Sequence record: OP292222.1
Reading direction: 5' to 3' (one strand)
DNA: 64,000 nt
DNA from: Escherichia phage Esco_phi_B-01
This document shows positions 1,270 through 63,955 of the stretch, piece after piece. Below the pieces are notes generated by a model that ran no database searches, had not been told where the DNA came from, and worked only from the letters and a program-made list of their open reading frames with translations. Every line of letters begins with the position of its first letter. Position 1 is the stretch's first letter. Both the position numbers and the translations under genes were made by a program.

Positions 1270-3228
1270 TTATATTGTAATTGGTTCCAACTCTATAGTT
1301 GTGTACTGAGGACGAAGGTCATCTTCAAATACGATTAAAGAACCGTCTTTGGTAAAGATGTTGTCTTGGTCTGGTCCTGCATAAAGTTCAATAGACTGGA
1401 CTTCAAAACGGTCGGAAGTAAGGCCTATCGCGGCGATATCCCAGAAAATAAAGTCTGAGTAATAATCAATTTCGCCAATAACATAGTAGACCGATTGGTC
1501 TGCAGGAGCTGCCATTTTATCGAAGTCATCTCCGGTATAAGGTTGGATGTATTGGTTTTCAATTACATCACCTGGACGGAAAGGACCTATAACCATTTTA
1601 CCATCGCCTCGTTCGTCTTTATCTGTGGCAACAATACGTACGTTATAAGATTTAATATCATCCGATACGTTTGTTGGGACGAACTCAAATTCACTAGAAG
1701 TTACAGAACGGTTGGTGTATTGATTATAGTATTTAATACCTGCTTCAGGTGTTTTGAAGAAGTTTAATACCTCGCGAACCATTGTTACCGTAGCCGAAGA
1801 GCCAAGGATACTGTGGTCTGCATTATCAATATAAGTCAGCATTTTAGACTTGGCAAATCCATGGTTGAATATTTCAACTTCGTTAATATAATAACGGTCT
1901 ATTTGAGAAAGGATTTGAGCCGTTAGCCATTGTTCGGATTCCTGTAATTTGTTCAGTGCATATGAAACCTTAATTTTATGCTTTAAGAACAAGTAGTCTG
2001 GAGAAATAACCGAAGGAGTAATAGGCGCCAAGTTAAATTCTGAAAGATAATTTTGGATATCTTCACGTTGAACCGCAGTCAAATACAATCCTGATTTAGG
2101 TTTAATAGTAACAAAGGCGTAACCTGGTTTATTTGGGTCCGTAAAGGTTTGTACTGCTTGTACAATAGAACCAAATCGCTCTGAAACGAATGTATCATAA
2201 TCCGTACCAGTTACGGCACGCATCTGGGCTTCGCGTTTAACTACAGCTAGTTCACGAATACGTTCGATATCTTCAGGGTCACCGCCACCATCAGCACCTA
2301 CATAATCCGGATTCCCATCATAGTTTTCTGTAATTTTTTCAACCGTAATATATGCCAAAGAATCCGCATAACTAAAGTCCACTGCGCCGTTAGCAACTTC
2401 ACCATCGGTACGAAGATATTCTATAACAATGGTAGCATCTTTAACAGGTTTTAAACCGCCAATATAATTAGCTTCTAATACACCGCCCGCAACTGATTTT
2501 TCGGCAACGCCTTCACCAAAGAAGAATTCGGTATTACCATCTACGGTTTCACGCATATAGTAAATGGTTGATGTACTACCGGCATGAACCATGGATTTAT
2601 TAGTCCAGTTAGTCCATTCTGCACCATCGACATAAAGTTTAACTTCTTGTCTATCAATATCCGGGTCACGAATAAGAATAGGGGTTTTAGGGTCGTACTT
2701 AAGTTCGGTACGAATAATACGACCTTGTGCTAAAGATACAATAGGGAGATATTGGTTATTAACATCACGTACGGCAATAACGTTTTCCGTGGTAACAAAA
2801 GCATACGGGTCTGCCGAAGTATCACGAGCATAGGCCAAGAATTTAGTACCACGTGGGATACGAATATTCTTTTCATTCAGGGCCTGAGTACAGGTCAACA
2901 TAATACTTGTTTTTGCCGCGGATTTGGAACTAGGAAGGTATCCGTTATCTTGTGCAGCCTGGACAACCGAAGAACGAAGGTTTGCCGTTCCTATAAAAGA
3001 CTCGTATAAAGCTGTGTTAGCAAATTGCTGTATATAAAGAGTATTATAAGCAAGCATATCAATAAGGATATTCATTCGAGAACCAACGAAATCATAATCC
3101 TTAAATTCTTCCTGGCTGGAAAGCCAATCGATAATATTCTTTTTAATTTCTTCAAACGTAGCTCCCACAAATACTTTTGGGATAGCGTTAACGGTTCTTG
3201 TTAATTGGTAATTCGTAGGAGTAGCCAT
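1270..3228 (-). CDS. 6: baseplate wedge protein gp6
   Basis: 652 aa ORF (T4 gp6 about 660 aa); position between 5.4 and 7. Confidence 0.85.
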   Translation of the reverse strand: MATPTNYQLTRTVNAIPKVFVGATFEEIKKNIIDWLSSQEEFKDYDFVGSRMNILIDMLAYNTLYIQQFANTALYESFIGTANLRSSVVQAAQDNGYLPSSKSAAKTSIMLTCTQALNEKNIRIPRGTKFLAYARDTSADPYAFVTTENVIAVRDVNNQYLPIVSLAQGRIIRTELKYDPKTPILIRDPDIDRQEVKLYVDGAEWTNWTNKSMVHAGSTSTIYYMRETVDGNTEFFFGEGVAEKSVAGGVLEANYIGGLKPVKDATIVIEYLRTDGEVANGAVDFSYADSLAYITVEKITENYDGNPDYVGADGGGDPEDIERIRELAVVKREAQMRAVTGTDYDTFVSERFGSIVQAVQTFTDPNKPGYAFVTIKPKSGLYLTAVQREDIQNYLSEFNLAPITPSVISPDYLFLKHKIKVSYALNKLQESEQWLTAQILSQIDRYYINEVEIFNHGFAKSKMLTYIDNADHSILGSSATVTMVREVLNFFKTPEAGIKYYNQYTNRSVTSSEFEFVPTNVSDDIKSYNVRIVATDKDERGDGKMVIGPFRPGDVIENQYIQPYTGDDFDKMAAPADQSVYYVIGEIDYYSDFIFWDIAAIGLTSDRFEVQSIELYAGPDQDNIFTKDGSLIVFEDDLRPQYTTIELEPITI

Positions 3229-3236
3229 TTTAATTC

Positions 3237-3530
3237 CTATTTTATGAATACTTTAGATGAGGCTTGTGCGACTGTATCTCCGCACGAAATAGGGTCTGCC
3301 ATTTGGACAGCCTTTTTGCCTGTAACATATACCTTTGATGTTCTAGGTTGGGTTACCCCACCGTGGGTTTTATATGGTTTTTTAATTTCTGTATGAGGAG
3401 TTATTGGGTCCCCATCGACTAATACAGGAATGCCGCCTGTAAATACTTTACCCTGGGTGGCATTTATTACTGTAGGAGGCCATGCTTCATGACCTGCTGT
3501 TACGCATTGATTATAACTTAAGCCCGACAT
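3237..3530 (-). CDS. 5.4: PAAR-repeat spike tip protein gp5.4
   Basis: 97 aa, same size and position as T4 gp5.4. Confidence 0.75.
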
Positions 3531-4111
3531 TATGGCCTCGCATATACATATTCTCTGAGTTGATTAGCCCATTTACTCCAATTACCCACTATAACCTTGG
3601 TATAAACCTTAGTAAGAGTTTTTCTTACCGGTGCTGGAGGAGGGTCGGTTTCGTTACCGGCTCTAGAATTACTTCCTCCTGAGTTCCCTGTATCACCTCC
3701 TGATGACTCTTCCTGAAAGTCATAGATTAATGTGACGGTATAGGAAAAAGTCTTCTGAAGATTACCAGGGGCTTTCCAGAGGTATAATTGAGTGCTCTTG
3801 TCCTCTGGTAAATCTTTCCATGAACCTGCTGTTTTAAATTCATCACCTAATCGATATTTTAACGCATCTTCAGAAAATCCGAATACCGATTCATAGGTTC
3901 CGTATAAACGAGCCCCATCGACAATAATGCCTTCTGTTGGCTCATATTCTGTTATATTTATTTCAACTAATGTTTCGTTTGTTTCTAATTGAGCGGTAAA
4001 CGTAACATCGATTGAGGCTCCTTCCATGGAGTCTCCTAAATCTGTGCTCATAGGTAAAATATTAGCCAATGTCAATCCTCGAACCATCAATAGTATATTG
4101 ACCGGACGCAA
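3530..4111 (-). CDS. hypothetical protein at the gene 5.1 position; true start probably internal (about 4027-4051)
   Basis: ORF between gp5 and gp5.4; the 5' end overlaps the gp5 C-terminus, so an internal Met is the likely start. Confidence 0.5.
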
Positions 4112-9163: not shown

Positions 9164-10062
<899 letters not shown>

Positions 10063-10080: not shown

Positions 10081-10335
10081 ATGAAAACTTACTCTGAATT
10101 TTCTGAAAAATCTCTAACTGAATCCTCACATGGTATGGAAGTAAAACTTGGTACGGCTTTGGCTGAAGCCGAACGTTTGTTCGCGCGTATTAAAGAACTT
10201 GCTGATTCTGTTGACCCGGGTTCCTTTAAAGGTGACCAGACTAAAGTTAAAGCTCTTTTGGCTCTGTGTTCTGATGCCGGTGAAATTGCTAAGAATGGCT
10301 CTAAGATGAAGAAACGTCTGGAAGACCTAAAATAA
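10081..10335 (+). CDS. internal-protein-like small protein with capsid targeting sequence
   Basis: N-terminus MKTYSEFSEKSLTE. Confidence 0.55.
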   Translation: MKTYSEFSEKSLTESSHGMEVKLGTALAEAERLFARIKELADSVDPGSFKGDQTKVKALLALCSDAGEIAKNGSKMKKRLEDLK

Positions 10336-10347
10336 TTTAAAAAAGAT

Positions 10348-10395
10348 GTTTACAAGGTCTATAGGCATGATACTATAGACCTATCAAAACAAACT
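10348..10395 (+). promoter_or_regulatory. PeSL early promoter cassette
   Basis: GTTTAC 10348-10353, 17-nt spacer, TACTAT 10371-10376; inverted repeat GGTCTATAG/CTATAGACC. Confidence 0.65.
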
Positions 10396-10413: not shown

Positions 10414-10638
10414 ATGAAAACTTATCAAGAATTTATTACAGAAGCTAAAAAGCACGAAGACCAGCTGCCGGTTGTTACAAAAACCTTTGATGGTACACTG
10501 GCCGATTTTAAAAAAATCCCTAGTGATAAACTTGCTAAATTGACCGGAAGCATCAGCGAAAAAGATGGCAAGGTTACGTTTTCTGCCCAAGGCACCGCCA
10601 ATCTTAAAAAACTTTTGAAAGCCGCTGGTGCAGAATAA
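10414..10638 (+). CDS. internal-protein-like small protein with capsid targeting sequence
   Basis: MKTYQEFITEAKK at the second in-frame ATG. Confidence 0.6.
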   Translation: MKTYQEFITEAKKHEDQLPVVTKTFDGTLADFKKIPSDKLAKLTGSISEKDGKVTFSAQGTANLKKLLKAAGAE

Positions 10639-10646
10639 AAATAATT

Positions 10647-10695
10647 GTTTACAACGGGCCTTAGTGATGATACTATAGCCCTATCAAAACAAATG
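10647..10695 (+). promoter_or_regulatory. PeSL early promoter cassette
   Basis: GTTTAC 10647-10652, TACTAT 10671-10676, followed by CTATCAAAACAAA as in the other copies. Confidence 0.6.
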
Positions 10696-12148: not shown

Positions 12149-12222
12149 GGCCCTGTAGCTGGACGGTCAAGCGAGCGACTCATAATCGCTGGATGGTGGT
12201 TCGATTCCACCCAGGGCCACCA
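12149..12222 (+). tRNA. tRNA with CAU anticodon (Met, or Ile if lysidine-modified as in T4 tRNA-Ile)
   Basis: acceptor GGCCCTG/CAGGGCC, anticodon stem AGCGA/TCGCT with loop CTCATAA, T-arm GGTGG-TTCGATT-CCACC, 3' CCA encoded. Confidence 0.8.
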
Positions 12223-12226
12223 ATTT

Positions 12227-12301
12227 GGATGTGTAGCTCAGTGGTAGAGCAGTTGACTGTTAATCAATTGGTCCATGGTTCGAATCCATGCATGTCCGCC
12301 A
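12227..12301 (+). tRNA. tRNA-Asn (GUU)
   Basis: acceptor GGATGTG/CATGTCC with G-U pairs, D-arm TAGCTCAGTGGTAGAGC, anticodon loop CTGTTAA, T-loop TTCGAAT, CCA encoded. Confidence 0.75.
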
Positions 12302-12305
12302 AATA

Positions 12306-12381
12306 CGAGGCATAGCTCAGAAGGAAGAGCAACGGTCTTCTAAACCGTAGGTCGTAGGTTCGATCCCTACTGTCTCGACCA
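12306..12381 (+). tRNA. tRNA-Arg (UCU)
   Basis: acceptor CGAGGCA/TGTCTCG, D-arm TAGCTCAGAAGGAAGAGC, anticodon stem ACGGT/ACCGT with loop CTTCTAA, T-arm GTAGG-TTCGATC-CCTAC, CCA encoded. Confidence 0.8.
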
Positions 12382-12551: not shown

Positions 12552-12579
12552 GGCCCTTCCGAAAGGTTGGGCCTTTTTT
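12552..12579 (+). terminator. rho-independent terminator
   Basis: GGCCCTTCCGAAAGGTTGGGCC followed by a T run. Confidence 0.7.
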
Positions 12580-12580
12580 G

Positions 12581-12588
12581 TATAAATA
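12581..12588 (+). promoter_or_regulatory. late promoter TATAAATA
   Basis: exact TATAAATA 27 nt upstream of the ATG at 12615. Confidence 0.55.
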
Positions 12589-12614: not shown

Positions 12615-13169
12615 ATGAAACTTTTAAAATATTTGAGTTGGATTCTGTTGGTCCCACTAGATTTTATCTCTATGGTTCTGGCTGTTATCCTTGCACCTTT
12701 TGTAGTTCCTTTCCACAATAAAAAGACTGGTAAATTGCCATACGGTTTTGATTGGATGATGACATACGATAATCCAATTGACGGTGATAAAGGTCATATT
12801 AAACGTTGGGCTAAAATCAGGAAAATGCCTGGTGGTGTTTATCTCCAGAGAGTAGCTTGGCTATGGCGAAATAAAGCTTATAACTTTGCTTATCATAAAC
12901 TAGGACGTGATTGTAGTTCAGAATTCCATTATCGTGGTAATCCTGACGTAGAATCAGGTTCTCCTGATAAAGCCCACCATGGTTGGTTATGGATGTGGAA
13001 TGATGATGCCTGGGGTGTATTTGCTTCAGTTCCTTATCTTAAGGTCGGCGGAATCACATTTTACCTTCGCGTGTACTGTGGATGGAAGCTTAAGAGCCTT
13101 TTGTCTCGTAAAATCCCTAAAGCTATGTTAGCCTTCCACGTGAACCCGTTCCGGTTCTACAAGAACTGA
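12615..13169 (+). CDS. hypothetical N-terminally membrane-anchored protein, late-promoter driven
   Basis: 184 aa; N-terminal hydrophobic helix; flanked by duplicated terminator/late-promoter cassette. Confidence 0.55.
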   Translation: MKLLKYLSWILLVPLDFISMVLAVILAPFVVPFHNKKTGKLPYGFDWMMTYDNPIDGDKGHIKRWAKIRKMPGGVYLQRVAWLWRNKAYNFAYHKLGRDCSSEFHYRGNPDVESGSPDKAHHGWLWMWNDDAWGVFASVPYLKVGGITFYLRVYCGWKLKSLLSRKIPKAMLAFHVNPFRFYKN

Positions 13170-13174
13170 TTTAC

Positions 13175-13202
13175 GGCCCTTCCGAAAGGTTGGGCCTTTT
13201 TG
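13175..13202 (+). terminator. rho-independent terminator (duplicate of the 12552 copy)
   Basis: identical hairpin GGCCCTTCCGAAAGGTTGGGCC plus T run. Confidence 0.7.
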
Positions 13203-13210
13203 TATAAATA
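13203..13210 (+). promoter_or_regulatory. late promoter TATAAATA
   Basis: exact TATAAATA 29 nt upstream of the ATG at 13239. Confidence 0.55.
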
Positions 13211-13238
13211 GATAAGTTAATTAACACAGGAAACAATA

Positions 13239-13862
13239 ATGAAAACTTACAATGAATTTTTGAACGAAAGCGTTCTGAGTGAAGCCGGCTTGCGCATGAC
13301 TAAAGATATGTGGCAAGCTGCTTATGATAAAATTTCCGGGACTAAAACCACTACCGAGTTCTTTAAAAACGTTTATGATATGTATGGTTTTGATACTAGT
13401 AGCCAGAAAGAATATTACAAAGCTTCCAAAGCTTTTAAAGATATCGTAGCCGGTGGCGCTACTAAGCCTGCTAAACCAGCTAAAGCTCCTGTTGCTAAAC
13501 CTGCAGCCCCAACCAAAGTTGCACCACCTAAACCTGCTGCAGCGCCTAAAGCAGAGCCTGTAAAAGAAGCTCCTAAATCTAAAATCAAGTTTGACACCAC
13601 TACTATTGTTAAAAAATATAACCAGCTGGCTTCTTTGGTTTCTGAAATCGAAACTGAAACTAAACATCTCGTTCGAGAATTCAACGCTCTTCGTAACGGA
13701 CAGCACATTAACAACCTAGATACCCCAGACCTTTATCGCCTCTATCTGACGGTTGAAGGCCTTAAGTATACCCAGCCTATGCATGAAGAAATTGATAACA
13801 AACTTCGTCAAGCCCGCCGCCTTGCAGGTGACGCAGCACAGTTCGAAAAGACTCGTAAATAA
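13239..13862 (+). CDS. internal-protein-like protein with capsid targeting sequence and Ala/Lys/Pro-rich repeat segment
   Basis: MKTYNEFLNES N-terminus; low-complexity PAKPAKAPVAKPAAPTKVAPPKPAAAPKAEP; late promoter upstream. Confidence 0.6.
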   Translation: MKTYNEFLNESVLSEAGLRMTKDMWQAAYDKISGTKTTTEFFKNVYDMYGFDTSSQKEYYKASKAFKDIVAGGATKPAKPAKAPVAKPAAPTKVAPPKPAAAPKAEPVKEAPKSKIKFDTTTIVKKYNQLASLVSEIETETKHLVREFNALRNGQHINNLDTPDLYRLYLTVEGLKYTQPMHEEIDNKLRQARRLAGDAAQFEKTRK

Positions 13863-13921: not shown

Positions 13922-13968
13922 GTTTACACCTCCTTTAAACATGATACTATAGACCTATCAAAACAACA
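13922..13968 (+). promoter_or_regulatory. PeSL early promoter cassette
   Basis: GTTTAC 13922-13927, TACTAT 13945-13950, CTATCAAAACAAC. Confidence 0.6.
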
Positions 13969-21418: not shown

Positions 21419-21426
21419 TATAAATA
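21419..21426 (+). promoter_or_regulatory. late promoter TATAAATA of lysozyme gene e
   Basis: exact TATAAATA 23 nt upstream of the e ATG. Confidence 0.6.
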
Positions 21427-21448
21427 CCTCCTATAATCAGGAGGTATT
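21423..21448 (+). promoter_or_regulatory. RBS-sequestering hairpin of gene e
   Basis: AATACCTCCT-ATAATC-AGGAGGTATT; the 3' arm contains the SD AGGAGG. Confidence 0.6.
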
Positions 21449-21449
21449 T

Positions 21450-21938
21450 ATGGATATTTTTGATATGTTACGTCAAGACGAAGGTCTTGATTTAAATCTT
21501 TATAAAGACACCGAAGGTTATTGGACTATTGGTATAGGCCAGTTAGTTACCAAGAACCCATCTAAAGATGTTGCTCGCGCTGAACTTGATAAGCTTATGG
21601 GGCGAGTTTGTAATGGTCGTATTACTATGGCTGAAGCTGAACAGCTCTTTAACCGTTCAGTGGAAAATGCTCGTAGAGCTATAATGCGTAATCCTAAATT
21701 GAAACCGGTTTATGATGTGCTGGACGAAGTTCGTCGTTGCGCATTGATTAATATGGTCTTCCAAATGGGCGAAGCTGGTGTAGCAGGATTTACCAACTCT
21801 CTGCGTATGCTCCAACAGAAACGTTGGGATGATGCAGCAGTTAACCTGGCACAGTCTCGTTGGTACAAGCAAACCCCGAATCGTGCCAAGCGTGTTATCG
21901 CCACCTTTAAAACCGGTACTTGGGCTGCTTATAGATAA
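21450..21938 (+). CDS. e: endolysin (T4 lysozyme e homolog)
   Basis: [35 protein letters not shown] and [32 protein letters not shown] closely match T4 lysozyme. Confidence 0.9.
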
Positions 21939-22021: not shown

Positions 22022-22618
22022 ATGAAAACGTATAAAGAATTTATCACCGAAGCTACTGCAGGAAAGGTCAAAGGCATTAATAAAGATGAGTGGACTTACC
22101 GAGGAAACGGTGTTGACCGCATAGGAAACGGCTTTGACGCTAAAACAGCTCCTATTGAACGATACTTAGCTACAAAGGCTTCCGACTTTAAAGCTTTCGC
22201 TTGGGAAGGACTTCGCTGGCGTAACGATTTGAATATTGAAGCTGATGGACTTAAATTTGGCCATATTCAAGATGTTGTTGCTAGTAACTTAGACTCGGAC
22301 TTTATTAAAGCTGATGAATCCCTTCGTCGCTGGAATTTAAAACTGTTCTCTAAACAGAAAGGTCCGGTGTTTGTACCTAAAGCAGGTAAATGGACTATTG
22401 ATAATAAATTGGCTAAGGCTGTCAACTTCGCCGGACTTGAATTTGCCAAGCATAAATCAGCATGGAAAGGTCTTGATGCAATGGCTTTTCGTAAAGAATT
22501 TGCCGATGTTATGACTAAAGCCGGCTTTAAGGCAGAACTAGATACCTCTAAAGGTACGTTTAAAGACGCTAATATTCAGTACGCTTACGCCGTTGCTAAT
22601 GCAGCCCGTGGTAATTAA
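22022..22618 (+). CDS. internal protein (IPIII-like) with capsid targeting sequence
   Basis: MKTYKEFITEA N-terminus; 198 aa; sits between e and denV where T4 has ipIII/ipII. Confidence 0.6.
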   Translation: MKTYKEFITEATAGKVKGINKDEWTYRGNGVDRIGNGFDAKTAPIERYLATKASDFKAFAWEGLRWRNDLNIEADGLKFGHIQDVVASNLDSDFIKADESLRRWNLKLFSKQKGPVFVPKAGKWTIDNKLAKAVNFAGLEFAKHKSAWKGLDAMAFRKEFADVMTKAGFKAELDTSKGTFKDANIQYAYAVANAARGN

Positions 22619-63585: not shown

Positions 63586-63777
63586 ATGACTGCAATGTGT
63601 ACGGGCTCTAAGATTTCTGTATTCGAACTGTTCGAAGAATATGAAATCGTATCAAAAGACCAAGAAGCTATCCATATTATTGCCGGTGATGGCGTAACTT
63701 GGATTATCCCACTTTACCACGAAGATACATATGAAGTCACTGATGCAAATGGTGATAAAGCTATTTTCGTAATATAA
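63586..63777 (+). CDS. hypothetical protein
   Basis: 63 aa. Confidence 0.45.
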   Translation: MTAMCTGSKISVFELFEEYEIVSKDQEAIHIIAGDGVTWIIPLYHEDTYEVTDANGDKAIFVI

Positions 63778-63793
63778 ATAAGGCCAGGAGCCT

Positions 63794-63955
63794 ATGAAAT
63801 CTTTTAAAGAAGTTATGAACGAAGATATGGTCGCAGGCGATGCTGGTGGAAATCCATCTAATATTGCCTCCGGAACTACCTCAGGCGCAGTCGTCAACAA
63901 AGGGCCTGAACAAATCCCATCTAAAAAGCGTAAAGAAAAATCCGAAAACGAATGA
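63794..63955 (+). CDS. hypothetical small protein
   Basis: 53 aa ORF below the track cutoff; RBS AGGAG upstream. Confidence 0.35.
   Translation: MKSFKEVMNEDMVAGDAGGNPSNIASGTTSGAVVNKGPEQIPSKKRKEKSENE

Follow-up and report, generated by a model that had tools for sequence, protein, structure and literature searches.

Gene content and order at the locus

The 64,000-nucleotide stretch of Escherichia phage Esco_phi_B-01 analyzed here (sequence record OP292222.1; hereafter, the window) encodes, between its tRNA genes and e.8, a 207-amino-acid (207-aa) protein for which a first-pass annotation, made from the DNA letters, had proposed a late-expressed, internal-protein-like product. That annotation had been right about the open reading frame (ORF) with an MKTYNEF leader, which lies at 13239-13862 on the plus strand. 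The window is from a Dhakavirus: the queried stretch was 90 to 95% identical over its full length to the genomes of Dhakaviruses (JS98-like T4-type coliphages), and the 207-aa gene is the ortholog of JS98 orf135, there called a “hypothetical protein.” Gene order runs 57B, three small ORFs of the ipI locus, trna.4/.3/.2, tRNA-Met/Asn/Arg (12149-12381), a DUF7338 ORF, the 207-aa gene, e.8, and e.6; in T4, no gene occupies the slot between the tRNA/rnaC-rnaD region and e.8. The profile hidden Markov model of phrog_2280 (“unknown function”) matched residues 1 to 202 of the protein across profile positions 1 to 178 of 178 (E = 3.2e-58). Features of the locus are collected in Table 1.

The middle of the predicted product is a 41-residue tract rich in Pro, Ala, and Lys, which might have been a frame artefact; the first-pass annotation had named codon periodicity and homologs as the check, and by both the tract is truly coding. 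Its GC content by codon position was 0.71/0.66/0.12. The ratio of nonsynonymous to synonymous substitution rates (dN/dS), calculated against six Dhakavirus and Mosigvirus orthologs, was 0.05 to 0.07 in the N-terminal domain, 0.04 to 0.07 in the C-terminal domain, and 0.23 to 0.32 in the tract, where constraint on the protein is weakest. Indels among homologs all fell within the tract, and all preserved the frame. An antisense ORF of 161 aa (13221-13706, minus strand) overlaps the gene and was ruled out as the true gene by its 6 to 8 stop codons in distant homologs, in all of which the sense frame is open. By these coding signatures, the 207-aa ORF is a real gene.

Table 1. Positions of the 207-aa gene, its domains, and the flanking elements within the window
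Feature	Position	Strand	Remarks
Second hairpin, T-run, and TATAAATA cassette	12552..12588	+	Before the DUF7338 ORF
DUF7338 ORF (PF24027)	12615..13169	+	Between the cassettes at 12552-12588 and 13175-13210
Hairpin and T-run	13175..13201	+	GGCCC-TT-CC-GAAA-GG-TT-GGGCC at 13175-13196, T5 at 13197-13201
T4-type late promoter motif TATAAATA (gp55-dependent type)	13203..13210	+	One G after T5; ATG 28 nt downstream
Shine-Dalgarno sequence AGGAAA	13228..13233	+	5 nt before ATG; invariant in six aligned Dhakavirus loci
Coding sequence, predicted 207-aa precursor	13239..13862	+	Opens MKTYNEFLNESVLSEAG...; phrog_2280; dN/dS 0.04-0.07 in both domains
Predicted propeptide with capsid-targeting sequence, MKTYNEFLNE/SVLSE/A (slashes, candidate cuts)	13239..13283	+	Tyr4/Phe7, targeting; LNE (8-10) and LSE (13-15), candidate protease sites
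Predicted N-terminal three-helix domain, residues 18-73	13290..13457	+	pLDDT ~85; dN/dS 0.05-0.07
Predicted disordered basic Pro/Ala/Lys linker, residues 74-114	13458..13580	+	41 residues, 9 Lys, 2 Glu, net +7
Predicted C-terminal three-helix, coiled-coil-like domain, residues 115-207	13581..13859	+	pLDDT ~90
Downstream hairpin, UUCG loop	13863..13888	+	Directly after the stop codon; closes the transcription unit

Capsid-targeting leader and candidate protease sites

The leader carries Tyr4, Phe7, Leu8, and Glu10, the targeting and processing determinants of the T4 internal protein (IP) IPIII: amber-suppression mutagenesis of that protein assigned residues 4 and 7 of its capsid-targeting sequence (CTS) mainly to targeting and residues 8 and 10 to processing (PMC9026906). 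A 10-residue CTS suffices for packaging foreign proteins (PMC8442874). Motifs of the form (L/I)xE occur only twice in the whole 207-aa protein, as LNE (8-10) and LSE (13-15), with none in the mature part. The junction LSE/A resembles the T4 junctions IAE/A and ITE/A, and this second site is better kept in the family than the first, as [LI][ST]E-A; several cleavage sites per propeptide are a known theme (PMC5694885). From these motifs we infer cleavage of the leader by the prohead protease. The lack of internal (L/I)xE motifs was also considered as evidence for single cleavage and set aside, as only about 1.4 would be expected by chance (a rough estimate) and some family members have internal sites.

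The first-pass annotation had called the leader the “same” as that of other ORFs in the window; they proved to be of the same class, though not identical. The window contains five MKTYxEF-type starts, all on the plus strand (ORFs at 9853, 10081, 10414, 13239, and 22022), the other four reading MKTYSEF (twice), MKTYQEF, and MKTYKEF. The looser pattern M..[YF].[EDQ][FI] matched 7 times versus 0.2 in shuffles, and the nucleotide pattern of the leader 4 times versus 0.02 expected. One of the five starts belongs to the IPIII ortholog (22022-22618, 198 aa; phrog_5341, E = 2e-113), which lies between e and denV as in T4; its presence with the same leader type indicates that this phage uses the CTS system. 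Beyond the window, leaders in distant genera read MYTFNEFLAE, MLKFKEFISE, MLNFKEFITE, and MLKFKDILTE, giving a family consensus of M-x-x-[YF]-x-[EDQ]-[FI] that is usually followed by an (L/I)-x-E site. Nucleotide divergence in Mosig-, Winkler-, Kanagawa-, Karam-, and Marfaviruses has left the protein sequence of the leader conserved; against Mosigvirus p000v, leader dN/dS was 0.22, with dS saturated.

Several side observations concern the other CTS-bearing genes. Three tandem small ORFs of the ipI locus, downstream of 57B (9853-10062, 10081-10335, and 10414-10638), have CTS leaders, and for two of the three the matching PHROG bears the name internal head or virion protein. The ORF at 9853-10062 belongs to phrog_23867 (unknown function), and its mature form would be acidic (isoelectric point [pI], 4.1), unusually so for an internal protein. 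Between e and denV the window has no IPII gene, unlike T4; directly upstream of the IPIII ortholog at 22022 lies a sigma70-like GTTTACA-N16-TAGTAT, as at T4 ipIII.

Predicted architecture and the Pro/Ala/Lys tract

The predicted mature protein has 192 aa, a pI of 9.66, 13.5% Lys, and a net charge of +12. An AlphaFold2 model, built on a 14-sequence alignment (mean predicted local distance difference test score [pLDDT], 74), showed a low-confidence leader and two confidently predicted helical domains on either side of the tract, in which residues 74 to 110 had pLDDT values of 31 to 39 and are predicted to be disordered. Pfam returned only a coiled-coil match below threshold (COMP, 17.4 bits versus a cutoff of 23.9, E = 0.006), and NCBIfam no meaningful match. 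Foldseek searches with the model gave a best E of 1.7 against the PDB and, against BFVD, solely family members plus two borderline, uncharacterized proteins of T4-like Serratia phages; word-indexed protein searches for relatives returned only “hypothetical” names.

The first-pass annotation had described a low-complexity Ala-Lys-Pro repeat. A 41-residue tract dominated by these three residues is indeed present, with PAKPAKAPVAKPAAPTKVAPPKPAAAPKAEP as its residues 77 to 107, yet no regular repeat unit was found in it (Tandem Repeats Finder, 2.6 copies of a 9-nt unit). Across the family, composition is kept and neither sequence nor length is: tracts range from 15 to 46 residues and from +1 to +9 in net charge. 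Conserved helical domains on either side of a weakly constrained tract form the pattern of an interdomain linker, and the tract is most likely, by sequence and model, a disordered basic linker of variable length and not a histone-like repeat. Exchange of domains across the linker is indicated by two relatives, P0023 and P0026, which share the leader, N-terminal domain, and basic tract and end in unrelated C-terminal domains. A third, P0025, joins the N-terminal domain of a shorter, 157-aa family type to a C-terminal domain resembling the one in the 207-aa type.

The same tract bears on the strongest rival explanation, that of a tail like those of histone H1 or AlgP whose main role would be to coat or condense packaged and injected DNA, as the first-pass annotation had suggested. 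Bacterial H1-like tails are found in Pseudomonas AlgP, with KPAA repeats, and in mycobacterial HupB, with PAKKA repeats. The tract is like them in its net positive charge and in being dominated by Pro, Ala, and Lys (Lys, about 22%); it is unlike them in being short, variable in length, without a regular repeat unit, and placed between folded domains instead of at one end of the protein. Its charge (net +7, with a Lys every 3 to 5 residues) would suit DNA binding, and the longest Pro/Ala/Lys-type stretch was net positive in 22 of 22 family members examined. T4 internal proteins bind DNA at low salt (PMC9026906), and in solid-state NMR their lysines contact DNA phosphates (PMC3012670). However, a coating role sits poorly with a predicted disordered, repeat-less tract that is less constrained than the rest of the gene and conserved in neither length nor charge, and it would leave the conserved helical domains without a role. 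At copy numbers like those of internal proteins, which total about 1,000 per head, the lysines would, by our reckoning, neutralize only a small fraction of some 340,000 phosphates; moreover, T4 and many relatives manage without the gene. We therefore consider a histone-like coating protein unlikely. By analogy with the lysines of T4 internal proteins, the tract of the proposed linker probably touches DNA electrostatically within the head, a class-wide property distinct from coating.

An insulated unit with a late promoter motif

The claim of a terminator fused directly to a late promoter was borne out, as a single G separates the T-run of the upstream hairpin from TATAAATA. The stem of this hairpin (13175-13179/13192-13196) encloses a 2x2 internal loop, inner CC/GG pairs, and a GAAA (GNRA) loop; because of the internal loop, it had been missed by a simple terminator scan. 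Its fold of -15.3 kcal/mol (z = -2.8) was equaled in stability by 1 of 200 shuffles. The element is identical in JS98, CLB_P2, IME08, Eco005, and ESCO10, and in fDHCT2 and Mosigvirus p000v the compensatory stem GCCCC/GGGGC replaces GGCCC/GGGCC. Judged from its sequence and fold, it is an intrinsic-terminator-like insulator against transcription arriving from the DUF7338 ORF and tRNA genes. At the other end of the gene, the 51-nt stretch that holds the downstream hairpin had a minimum free energy of -16.9 kcal/mol (z = -3.0), the hairpin alone (centroid) reaching -15.2 kcal/mol; next after it comes an early-type promoter cassette (13923-13950), serving e.8.

Four of the six plus-strand copies of TATAAATA in the window lie 23 to 28 nt before the ATG of an ORF of at least 149 aa, including those of genes 4 (head completion) and e (lysozyme), which are late genes in T4 and have a promoter-to-ATG spacing similar to that of the 207-aa gene. 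A late motif also precedes orthologs elsewhere: TATAAATA in p000v and PG7, and GATAAATA or CATAAATA in CBH8, Kosakonia 305, and Marfa. The cassette before the 207-aa gene has no sigma70 -35/-10 pair. With hairpins on both flanks and this sole motif between them, the 207-aa gene forms an insulated unit with a late promoter motif alone, and we infer that it is transcribed late.

Two other copies of the motif deserve mention. At 21419-21452, a hairpin, CCTCCTATAATCAGGAGG, comes after the TATAAATA of lysozyme gene e and takes in the Shine-Dalgarno sequence; this is the classic T4 arrangement in which the ribosome binding site is exposed on late transcripts only. At 63773-63955, TATAAATA stands 13 nt before a 53-aa ORF opening MKSFKEVMNEDMVAGD, Gly/Ser-rich with a basic tail and with a loosely CTS-like start (Phe4, Glu10).

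Family distribution and allele replacement

By tblastn, the 207-aa type was found in 130 phage records spanning Dhaka-, Mosig-, Winkler-, Kanagawa-, Marfa-, and Karamvirus; carriers of the gene include JS98, CLB_P2, and the BASEL phages dhaeg and dhabil. A shorter type of 153 to 157 aa, assigned to the same PHROG (E = 4e-55), occurred in 512 records, mostly Tequatrovirus; teqdroes, a relative of Bas37, has a homolog of this type. All records of both types are annotated “hypothetical,” and the gene sat between the tRNA cluster and e.8 or e.6 at each of the loci inspected. Among 1.84 billion representative proteins searched with a profile, just 13 relatives were recovered, all phage-like and all with the leader wherever the N terminus was present.

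Within the genus Dhakavirus, the cargo has been exchanged behind a constant front. The 157-aa cargo of sibling Dhakaviruses is only 33% identical to the 207-aa protein, and the first 112 bases of the unit, comprising hairpin, late promoter, Shine-Dalgarno sequence, and 16 codons, are 90 to 98% identical in the Dhakaviruses that carry it.

Interpretation and comparison with known internal proteins

Together, the leader, the candidate protease sites, and an IPIII-like size and charge make it reasonably probable that the 207-aa protein is an internal protein directed to the head by its CTS, trimmed there by the prohead protease, and ejected along with the DNA. These features put it in a known class, the T4-type internal proteins, as a member that had not been named before. 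Late transcription, packaging, cleavage, ejection, and function are predictions drawn from sequence. The gene would be transcribed late from TATAAATA, as an insulated unit, at the time of prohead core assembly, and the MKTYNEFLNE leader would dock the product into the scaffolding core. A gp21-type prohead protease would then cut after Glu10 (LNE/S), Glu15 (LSE/A), or both, and the propeptide would exit the head. What remained among the DNA would be a basic protein of 192 to 197 aa (pI ~9.6 to 9.7, net +11 to +12), to be ejected with the genome into the host; in this mature form, two small conserved helical domains would be joined by a flexible, Lys-studded Pro/Ala linker of about 40 residues running along DNA phosphates.

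T4 IPIII is the closest point of reference. Its leader, MKTYQEFIAE, compares with MKTYNEFLNE and likewise has a cleavage site at 8-10; its mature form (183 aa, pI 9.65, 13.7% Lys, net +10) is close to the predicted mature 207-aa product in size, pI, Lys content, and charge, with mature IPII (pI 9.56) and IPI (pI 9.02) also basic; and it too is encoded by a nonessential accessory gene of the tRNA/e genome region. In contrast, BLASTP similarity to IPIII and IPII, the comparison that the first-pass annotation had proposed, ends after the first 18 to 26 residues (IPI was compared by eye only), so that the description “internal-protein-like” holds for leader, protease sites, size, and charge and fails for the remainder of the sequence. 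The 207-aa protein differs further in its predicted pair of helical domains with a disordered linker, in its gene lying between the tRNA genes and e.8 rather than between e and denV, and in its upstream region, where a late motif alone stands in place of the sigma70-like promoter found directly upstream of IPIII.

That diverse internal proteins have only the CTS in common has been known since the 1990s (PMC3012670). IPI inhibits GmrSD (PMC3012670), IPIII is required for growth on ECOR17 (PMC9391042), and the CTS-bearing Bas37_0260 inhibits McrBC (bioRxiv 10.1101/2025.11.20.689424). Like IPI and Bas37_0260 of the ipI locus, the 207-aa product would be a small CTS cargo that shares the leader alone and is exchanged via recombination in conserved flanks; unlike them, it is encoded at another locus, is more than twice their size, and is far more widely conserved, and while those two are injected inhibitors of type IV restriction, it is known from sequence alone. 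Because the gene is absent from T4, because the regulatory and leader sequence stays identical within a genus while the allele behind it is exchanged, and because of the precedents of IPI, IPIII, and Bas37_0260, its function would most likely, by analogy, be a host-specific accessory one, such as first-responder anti-defence.

Several points weigh against this interpretation. No virion proteomics of any family member was found in the literature, and peptide strings of relatives were absent from a mass spectrometry supplement that covers part of the dataset for a Klebsiella phage, which may itself lack the gene. The rules for the CTS were established in T4, and the leader here differs from the T4 IPIII sequence by Q5N, I8L, and A9N. 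TATAAATA was found 7 times in the window versus 6.8 expected; overall enrichment of the motif was consequently dropped as evidence, and the case for late expression draws solely on position and conservation. The structural model has a depth of only 14 sequences, and neither fold nor family matches gave a clue to activity.

Two further explanations retain the gene and change the fate of its product. A head-assembly helper, comparable as a prohead-core accessory to gp67/gp68 or to IPIII on its morphogenetic side and with no part to play after injection, would also need the core targeting that a CTS implies; the coiled-coil-like C-terminal domain (the weak COMP match below the Pfam cutoff, and helical-bundle matches), the slower head assembly in T4 IPIII mutants, and the strong purifying selection and conserved gene position would all suit it. 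Yet T4 lacks the gene, a 33%-identical replacement within one genus is unlike the behavior of core morphogenetic genes, and a protein with no protease motif in its mature part would persist rather than be cleared; a purely morphogenetic role is thus quite unlikely, somewhat more so than DNA coating. Still less probable is an unpackaged, late cytoplasmic protein whose MKTY leader merely hitchhikes on a recombination-prone promoter/leader cassette. The roughly 110-bp cassette plus leader shared by loci with differing cargo does indicate that DNA-level homogenization occurs, but hitchhiking does not account for a leader kept as protein despite nucleotide divergence in five other genera, under the constraint measured against p000v, nor for the retained positions being 4, 7, 8, and 10, those for targeting and processing. 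That there is no gene at all, the tract being a frame artefact or the overlapping antisense ORF the real one, has next to no chance given the codon periodicity, the frame-keeping indels, dN/dS far below 1, the antisense stops, and the phrog_2280 match (E = 3e-58).

A duplicated cassette around the DUF7338 gene

The hairpin and late promoter before the gene for this putative packaged protein are one of two such cassettes at the locus, the second preceding the DUF7338 ORF. Both copies, with the DUF7338 gene in between, are present in the window and in JS98; in CLB_P2 and IME08 there is a single cassette and no DUF7338 gene at that spot; and in Eco005, ESCO10, and fDHCT2 a single cassette directly precedes the internal-protein gene. 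Directly repeated cassettes combined with presence or absence of the gene fit insertion or excision by recombination between the cassettes. An ORF of 555 bp, the length of the DUF7338 gene, was also seen after the internal-protein gene in Eco005 (3084-3638 of the locus) and before it in ESCO10 (1803-2357), and gene order in the slot between tRNA genes and e.8 appears shuffled between these two phages. Several of the ESCO10 genes in this region seem to bear misassigned product names, such as “head vertex protein” and “prohead core scaffold protein.”

The duplicated cassette fits, by analogy, a late-promoter counterpart of PeSLs, the mobile regulatory cassettes of T4-type phages (Arbiol et al. 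2010, PMC2839356). The likeness lies in a module of stem-loop and promoter before variable genes and in direct repeats on either side of a gene that some close relatives have and others lack; the difference is that PeSLs combine a stem-loop with a sigma70 early promoter, whereas the cassette here has the late motif TATAAATA. Late promoters are not mentioned in the PeSL paper (PMC2839356). The window also contains three near-identical early-promoter cassettes, GTTTACA ... GATACTATAG(A/C)CCTATCAAAACAA, before small ORFs at 10349-10392, 10648-10692, and 13923-13966, and these resemble the PeSL elements known from RB49 and phi1.

Implications for T4-type phages

A broader proposal, which we put forward tentatively and hold to be clearly less probable than packaging itself, is that phrog_2280 may represent a fourth widespread class of T-even internal protein, absent from T4, and composed of a CTS, an N-terminal domain, a Lys-studded tether that would hold it on the first-entering DNA, and an exchangeable C-terminal domain. 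Such proteins might act in first-response counter-defence, and the stem-loop/late-promoter module might be a late counterpart of the PeSL that moves neighboring genes.

Internal proteins are the sole phage proteins already present at DNA entry, and the few that have been characterized (IPI, IPIII, and Bas37_0260) determine host range as counter-defence factors. At least ~640 sequence records of T4-type phages, many from candidates for phage therapy, contain the family described here, and the probable status of its members as packaged proteins makes them concrete candidates among the “hypothetical” proteins of these phages. The conserved leader could serve to find injected cargo across the Tevenvirinae, and the idea of regulatory cassettes that drive gene shuffling in these genomes is widened by one in which a stem-loop is fused to a late promoter.

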